NCBI RefSeq assembly: GCF_024700885.2
Contig: NZ_CP117016.1
Source: Escherichia coli
GTDB lineage: Bacteria; Pseudomonadota; Gammaproteobacteria; Enterobacterales; Enterobacteriaceae
Reading direction: 5' to 3' (one strand)
Length of the DNA stretch: 64,000 nt
Shown piece after piece: positions 26,027-26,244 of this stretch. The position numbers were made by a program, and so were the translations under genes. The notes below the pieces were generated by a model. The model searched no databases, was not told the origin of the DNA, and was given only the letters and a program-made list of their open reading frames with translations. Each line of letters opens with the position of its first letter. Positions within the stretch are counted from its first letter, which is position 1.

Positions 26027-26049
26027 AAGAATTGGCCCTACCAATTCTT
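26027..26049. promoter_or_regulatory. perfect palindrome upstream of lldP, candidate LldR operator
   Basis: aagaattgg-cccta-ccaattctt, 9-bp arms; a related half-palindrome aattggcagtaccactt lies at 26156-26172. Confidence 0.6.
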
Positions 26050-26244
26050 CGCTTATCTGACCTCTGGTTCACAATTCCCCAATTAAAACTCACATCAATG
26101 TTGCCAATGCATAACATTTAGTTAACCATTCATTGTCATTATCCCTACACAACACAATTGGCAGTACCACTTTTACACAACGTGTGACAAGGAGATGAGC
26201 ATCAGACTCATTACACGATGTGCGTGGACTCCAGGAGACCTGCA

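Follow-up and report, generated by a model that had tools for sequence, protein, structure and literature searches.

Two 17-bp boxes upstream of lldP in an Escherichia coli chromosome, at 26030-26046 and 26156-26172, are almost certainly operators O1 and O2 of the lldPRD promoter. They were found in a 64,000-nucleotide stretch of DNA that was analyzed as a whole and is referred to as the window. The assignment is made here from identity to curated sites, conserved cores and spacing, and the presence of the cognate regulator gene; binding of LldR, its dual role and the looping proposal come from the literature. No evidence contradicting the identification of the two sites was found. The lld operator element is well characterized and is in wide use in lactate biosensors. 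The palindrome and the box paired with it are already known and curated, and their detection recovers textbook regulation and nothing new. A genuine two-operator switch recovered from raw sequence without tools serves as a positive control. The new material is descriptive and consists of a sequence variant in O2, the 17-mer as the conserved unit and the recurrence of paired boxes in the LldR/PdhR clade.

The lldPRD locus and its two operators

The gene order lldP-lldR-lldD was confirmed on the plus strand of the window. The first gene of the operon, lldP (26245-27900), encodes L-lactate permease (Pfam Lactate_perm, E = 1e-235; annotation in an identical strain). It is followed by lldR (27900-28676), a GntR/FadR-type regulator gene with Pfam GntR and FCD domains, whose product passes the NCBIfam LldR equivalog model with 498 bits compared with a cut-off of 311. 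The third gene, lldD (28673-29863), encodes the quinone-dependent L-lactate dehydrogenase (Pfam FMN_dh, E = 1e-127; annotation). The upstream neighbor at 20218-25947 is a YadA-like trimeric autotransporter gene, and its 1909-residue adhesin product contains ESPR and YadA head, stalk and anchor domains. The intergenic space between the adhesin gene and lldP is 297 bp and contains both boxes. The 298-bp segment at 25948-26245 shows 100% identity to strain 1190 and occurs in 5419 of 5426 complete E. coli genomes, in every case adjoining lldP.

An intrinsic terminator of the upstream gene was located by a terminator scan at 25971-26000 on the plus strand, where a 13-pair stem is followed by TTTTCTTT. 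This terminator bounds the regulatory region and is outside the operator system. The matching place in K-12 (locus L001, 4042-4500) is occupied by yibL, without the adhesin gene. Homology to K-12 restarts at approximately 25969, which means that the strains share the hairpin of the terminator and the control region of lldP. Between the left stem arm of the terminator (25970-25991, beginning TAAGGGCAATTCTC) and the O1 region (26019-26040, ending GAATTGGCCCTA) there is 73% complementarity, probably by chance.

The original prediction described a perfect palindrome with 9-bp arms at 26027-26049 upstream of lldP, and both its sequence and its coordinates are right. The arms AAGAATTGG (26027-26035) and CCAATTCTT (26041-26049) are 100% complementary and are separated by the 5-nt spacer CCCTA. 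O1, the distal LldR operator, spans 26027-26049 with the core AATTGGCCCTACCAATT at 26030-26046. O2, the proximal LldR operator, spans 26153-26175 with the core AATTGGCAGTACCACTT at 26156-26172. The related sequence at 26156-26172 had been correctly positioned and mislabeled as a half-site; it is a complete, imperfect 17-bp box in which one arm contains a mismatch (CCACTT for CCAATT). The distance had been given as about 110 bp downstream, which agrees with the gap of 106-109 nt between the boxes and is better worded as 126 bp from start to start of the 17-mers, equal to the centre-to-centre distance.

Comparison with published LldR sites had been proposed as a check, and it supports the assignment. 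The sites listed in Supplementary Table 1 of PMC7804116, taken from RegulonDB, are the 23-mers AAGAATTGGCCCTACCAATTCTT (distal) and CACAATTGGCAGTGCCACTTTTA (proximal). The sequence at 26027-26049 matches the distal site at 23/23 positions. The sequence at 26153-26175 matches the proximal site at 22/23, and the sole change is G to A at 26166, in agreement with the K-12 alignment. Genomic SELEX places the highest LldR peak at lldP with an intensity of 62.9 (PMC10272880). The boxes reported there are AAtTGGcCctACCAaTT and AAgTGGcactgCCAaTT, the latter being the reverse complement of K-12 O2; gel shifts were obtained at lldP, and both boxes were equated with the two sites of Aguilera et al. 2008 (PMC10272880). 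The same study scores the O1 17-mer as an LldR box with 12/14 positions matching the consensus, and the LldR recognition sequence quoted in PMC3582500 is the O1 core. The idea of two spaced LldR operators at the lld operon is thus borne out by the literature, which gives exactly these sequences (PMC7804116, PMC10272880, PMC3582500); the published binding data concern the K-12 sequences (PMC10272880, PMC7804116). The lldPRD O1/O2 pair of K-12 (Aguilera et al. 2008, RegulonDB) has the same 126-bp spacing, the same place upstream of lldP and the same operon, and the present strain differs from it by the G to A change in O2 and by the adhesin gene in the upstream position.

The frequency of the two patterns in the window was determined. 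Perfect inverted repeats with 9-bp arms and a spacer of 0-10 occur 16 times in the 64-kb window compared with approximately 3 times in shuffles, and most of the 16 resemble terminators. A perfect 9-bp palindrome by itself is not rare in this DNA. The arm pattern AATTGG-N5-CCAATT with at most one mismatch has 2 matches in 64 kb, which are O1 and O2, compared with 0.25 expected, and two or more such matches appeared in 4 of 100 shuffles. Our own arithmetic gives a probability of approximately 0.001 for a second box within ±150 bp of the first by chance. The O1/O2 motif pair is non-random. Against the 17-bp LldR box AAnTGGTCnGACCAnTT, O1 scores 12/14 and O2 scores 11/14 (the O2 figure is our own count against the PMC10272880 consensus), and they rank above every other match in 64 kb. 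A search of the 64 kb with this SELEX-derived consensus allowing 3 mismatches gave 3 matches compared with 2.5 expected, which is no enrichment. The arm pattern is informative, unlike the consensus search. Both boxes also carry the core of the FadR subfamily of GntR regulators, TKGT-N3-ACMA (PMC4494728), as TGGC-CCT-ACCA in O1 and TGGC-AGT-ACCA in O2; the match is exact in the right half, and C replaces T in the left half.

The lldP promoter, the proposed loop and PdhR

The lldP transcript is said, in the 2008 work of Aguilera, to start 110 nt upstream of the ATG, with O1 at -105 to -89 and O2 at +22 to +38. These operator positions correspond to 126 bp from start to start, as observed. The 110-nt distance presumably puts the start site near 26135, which fits the sequence. 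The presumed σ70 core promoter lies at 26101-26135 on the plus strand. Its best -35-like candidate is TTGCCA at 26101-26106, and a putative weak -10 lies around 26123-26129. A promoter scan of 25900-26300 gave no strong match to a consensus σ70 promoter, and the lldP promoter therefore appears weak. The best conserved block of the O1-O2 spacer in an alignment from Escherichia to Kluyvera is 26098-26150.

Anaerobic repression of the lld operon is known. An ArcA-box-like sequence, GTTAACTAAATGTTA, is found on the minus strand at 26112-26126, between O1 and O2, where it overlaps the presumed core promoter and its -10. It is one mismatch away from the 15-bp ArcA consensus GTTAATTAAATGTTA and is the only sequence in 64 kb with at most 2 mismatches to it. 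The sequence lies in the spacer block conserved from Escherichia to Kluyvera. An ArcA operator has been located between O1 and O2 (PMC8689689), a placement that fits GTTAACTAAATGTTA as a candidate site for anaerobic repression.

The proposed mechanism starts with the binding of one LldR dimer, encoded two genes downstream, to each 17-bp FadR-subfamily GntR box. Without lactate, LldR would occupy both boxes and flank the start site, and the two dimers would probably interact to leave the promoter looped and repressed. In the presence of L- or D-lactate, LldR would keep its contact with DNA and change conformation, repression from O2 would be lifted, and LldR at O1 would be required for activation. 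Repression was reported to need two sites on either side of the start and activation to need the upstream site plus lactate (PMC3424551). A second summary agrees that LldR on both sites represses and that lactate-bound LldR at the upstream site activates (PMC5412874). Repression was reported to depend on helical phasing, which suggested a loop (PMC8689689), and the 126-bp spacing corresponds to 12.0 turns of a helix with 10.5 bp per turn, in agreement with the loop idea.

As in lac O1/O3, gal OE/OI and ara O2/I1, the promoter is flanked by sites for two dimers, and the distance between them is an integral number of helical turns. As reported for lld, repression likewise needs both sites and is phasing-dependent (PMC3424551, PMC8689689). 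Unlike in these systems, LldR stays on the DNA with inducer and activates from the distal site. A massively parallel reporter assay with the LldR sites moved to lacUV5 failed to detect the proposed LldR loop: there was no synergy between the distal and proximal sites, and the proximal site alone gave no repression (PMC7804116). Shortening the distance from O1 to the -35 by 10 bp left sensing unaffected (PMC8689689). Looping by LldR remains an unproven proposal. Microarray data show lldP expression up roughly 50-fold in a hupAB mutant (PMC2634741), an effect that would fit an HU-assisted loop, although the link is our own.

O1 could also be read as primarily an operator for the pyruvate sensor PdhR, with lld control by pyruvate and not by lactate; this is possible but clearly not the favored reading. 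LldR and PdhR, which are paralogues, share 38% identity. The PdhR box of pdhR-aceEF-lpd, AATTGGTAAGACCAATT, resembles O1 in its 17-bp length, its 5-bp centre and its arms AATTGG/CCAATT, the arms being identical. O1 matches the PdhR box AATTGGTnnnACCAATT at 13/14 positions (PMC7660256), and O2 is a weaker match. Genomic SELEX recovered PdhR binding at O1, and lldPRD mRNA was 3.3-fold higher in a pdhR mutant (PMC7660256). Set against these points, the strongest LldR SELEX peak genome-wide is at this locus and an lldR mutant loses lactate induction (PMC10272880). The lld operon also differs from pdhR-aceEF-lpd in having two boxes upstream of lldP compared with one at pdhR, and in having C for T at position 7, so that both Escherichia boxes read TGGC compared with TGGT in the canonical PdhR box. 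No role for PdhR was reportedly found by Aguilera in 2008, which conflicts with the SELEX and mRNA result described above. PdhR at O1 is best seen as an additional input to an LldR operator rather than as an alternative to it.

The conserved 17-bp box, its O2 variant and paired boxes elsewhere

The region upstream of lldP was aligned for E. coli K-12, E. albertii, E. whittamii, one further Escherichia species, an Enterobacteriaceae genome and three Kluyvera species. The O1 17-mer is invariant across the Escherichia species, and one loop base differs in Kluyvera. O2 is kept as AATTGGCAG[T/G][A/G]CCA[C/A]TT in the same alignment. The O1-O2 spacing is 126 bp in K-12 and 125-126 bp in the other Escherichia species and Kluyvera. 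The one-genome-per-species scan described below listed no Salmonella orthologues of the lldP region among its matches. The 17-mer cores are conserved across diverse E. coli, and the extensions that complete the 9-bp arms (AAG...CTT) diverge among the relatives and also in B2-type E. coli. Retention of the cores without the AAG...CTT flanks identifies the 17-bp box with 6-bp arms as the functional element and makes the 9-bp perfection incidental. The two predicted LldR sites therefore stand, and their extent is corrected from 9-bp arms to the 17-mer.

The strain has A at position 26166 of O2 (ACCA), compared with G (GCCA) in K-12 and most E. coli. An exact search with a 57-nt query centred on O2 found the A version in 223 of 5426 complete E. 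coli genomes (~4%) and the K-12 G version in 4272. All other Escherichia species and Kluyvera carry G, which indicates that the A is derived. The A restores ACCA, and by our own count the agreement with the LldR consensus improves to 11/14 from 10/14 in K-12. The A allele may lead to tighter binding of LldR at the proximal operator and, through this, to a change in basal repression or in the lactate threshold of that lineage.

Paired boxes were then sought with a pattern scan that used one genome per species and yielded at least 120 loci. Among the matches listed, approximately 90 lie directly upstream of a gene for an LldR/PdhR-clade regulator or of lldP (paired-box loci L004-L122, for example L010 5446-5599, L018 4253-4408, L032 1857-2013, L074 5778-5909 and L011 4184-4326). 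The centre-to-centre distance is 137-138 bp at pdhR-aceEF in Vibrio, 139 bp at pdhR-aceEF in Aeromonas, 138-142 bp at lldR-type regulator genes adjoining lldD in Marinobacter and Pseudomonas, 115-124 bp at lldPRD in Acidovorax, and 125-127 bp at a GntR gene in Paenibacillus. The matches listed also include paired boxes at pdhR-aceEF in Aliivibrio and Salinivibrio and at lldR-type genes in Alcanivorax, and among them the spacing is 115-142 bp overall and characteristic for each genus. In Vibrio and Aeromonas, the regulator passes the equivalog model for PdhR. The next gene in Vibrio was confirmed as aceE, and in Aeromonas the regulator is followed by an 886-residue open reading frame of AceE size, a putative AceE. 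At E. coli pdhR there is only one box (L129 539-555), 32 bp ahead of the ATG.

The entire LldR/PdhR clade may have an ancient, conserved layout in which two 17-bp boxes are placed 115-142 bp from each other. Under this hypothesis, regulators of the clade would generally act through operators paired over a long distance, with E. coli pdhR keeping one box. The recurrence of the pair bears on the unproven looping step. Taken jointly, altered regulation by the O2 A allele and an ancient paired architecture of the clade are tentative proposals that we hold to be doubtful at present.

Small RNA and chance readings of the palindrome

The Rfam family STnc380 (RF02055), a candidate small RNA of enterobacteria, covers the same intergenic DNA on the opposite strand with a score below threshold. 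This raises the question of whether an antisense small RNA is transcribed from the minus strand (26071-25962) with the palindrome as one of its hairpins, which is very unlikely. The match at 25962-26071 is full-length with E = 0.0006-0.001, and the first hairpin of the model corresponds to the O1 palindrome and the second to the terminator stem. The score of 28.9 bits is far below the gathering score of 60, and both hairpins are DNA palindromes already accounted for as the operator and the plus-strand terminator. The scan found no promoter-like site on either strand, and the minus-strand stem has no U-run. The O1 arms are invariant among orthologues and therefore provide no covariation for an RNA helix. 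The lack of a promoter, a U-run and covariation places little weight on the STnc380 match. A literature search for STnc380 returned a sole match, to the unrelated 'STnc3800'. The RF02055 consensus is made up of the O1 box in reverse complement followed by the stem of the upstream terminator, which suggests that the family may model regulatory DNA and not RNA.

The probability that the palindrome is a chance inverted repeat, a terminator or a cruciform without a protein partner is negligible: the 16 perfect repeats in the window and the folding of O1 as single-stranded DNA (-7.5 kcal/mol, z = -6.4) favor such a reading, but O1 has the same sequence as sites for which binding was shown by experiment, is kept exactly between genera where its flanks diverge, and has a second matching box at a conserved spacing. 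As a candidate intrinsic terminator, O1 has an A+T-rich stem followed by CGCTTATC and was rejected; no T-run follows it, and the scan gives the real terminator at 25971-26000 only. The missing T-run, the cross-genus conservation and the published binding data exclude a terminator and chance, and the LldR operator remains the reading of the palindrome.

The 5' leader RNA at 26135-26260 shows no unusual folding (z = -0.4), and no Rfam family matched it at threshold. Within the leader downstream of O2 (26173-26215), the blocks TTTACACAACGTGTGAC and AGATGAGC..AGACTCA are shared from Escherichia to Kluyvera, and this segment includes a short ATGAG/CTCAT inverted repeat.
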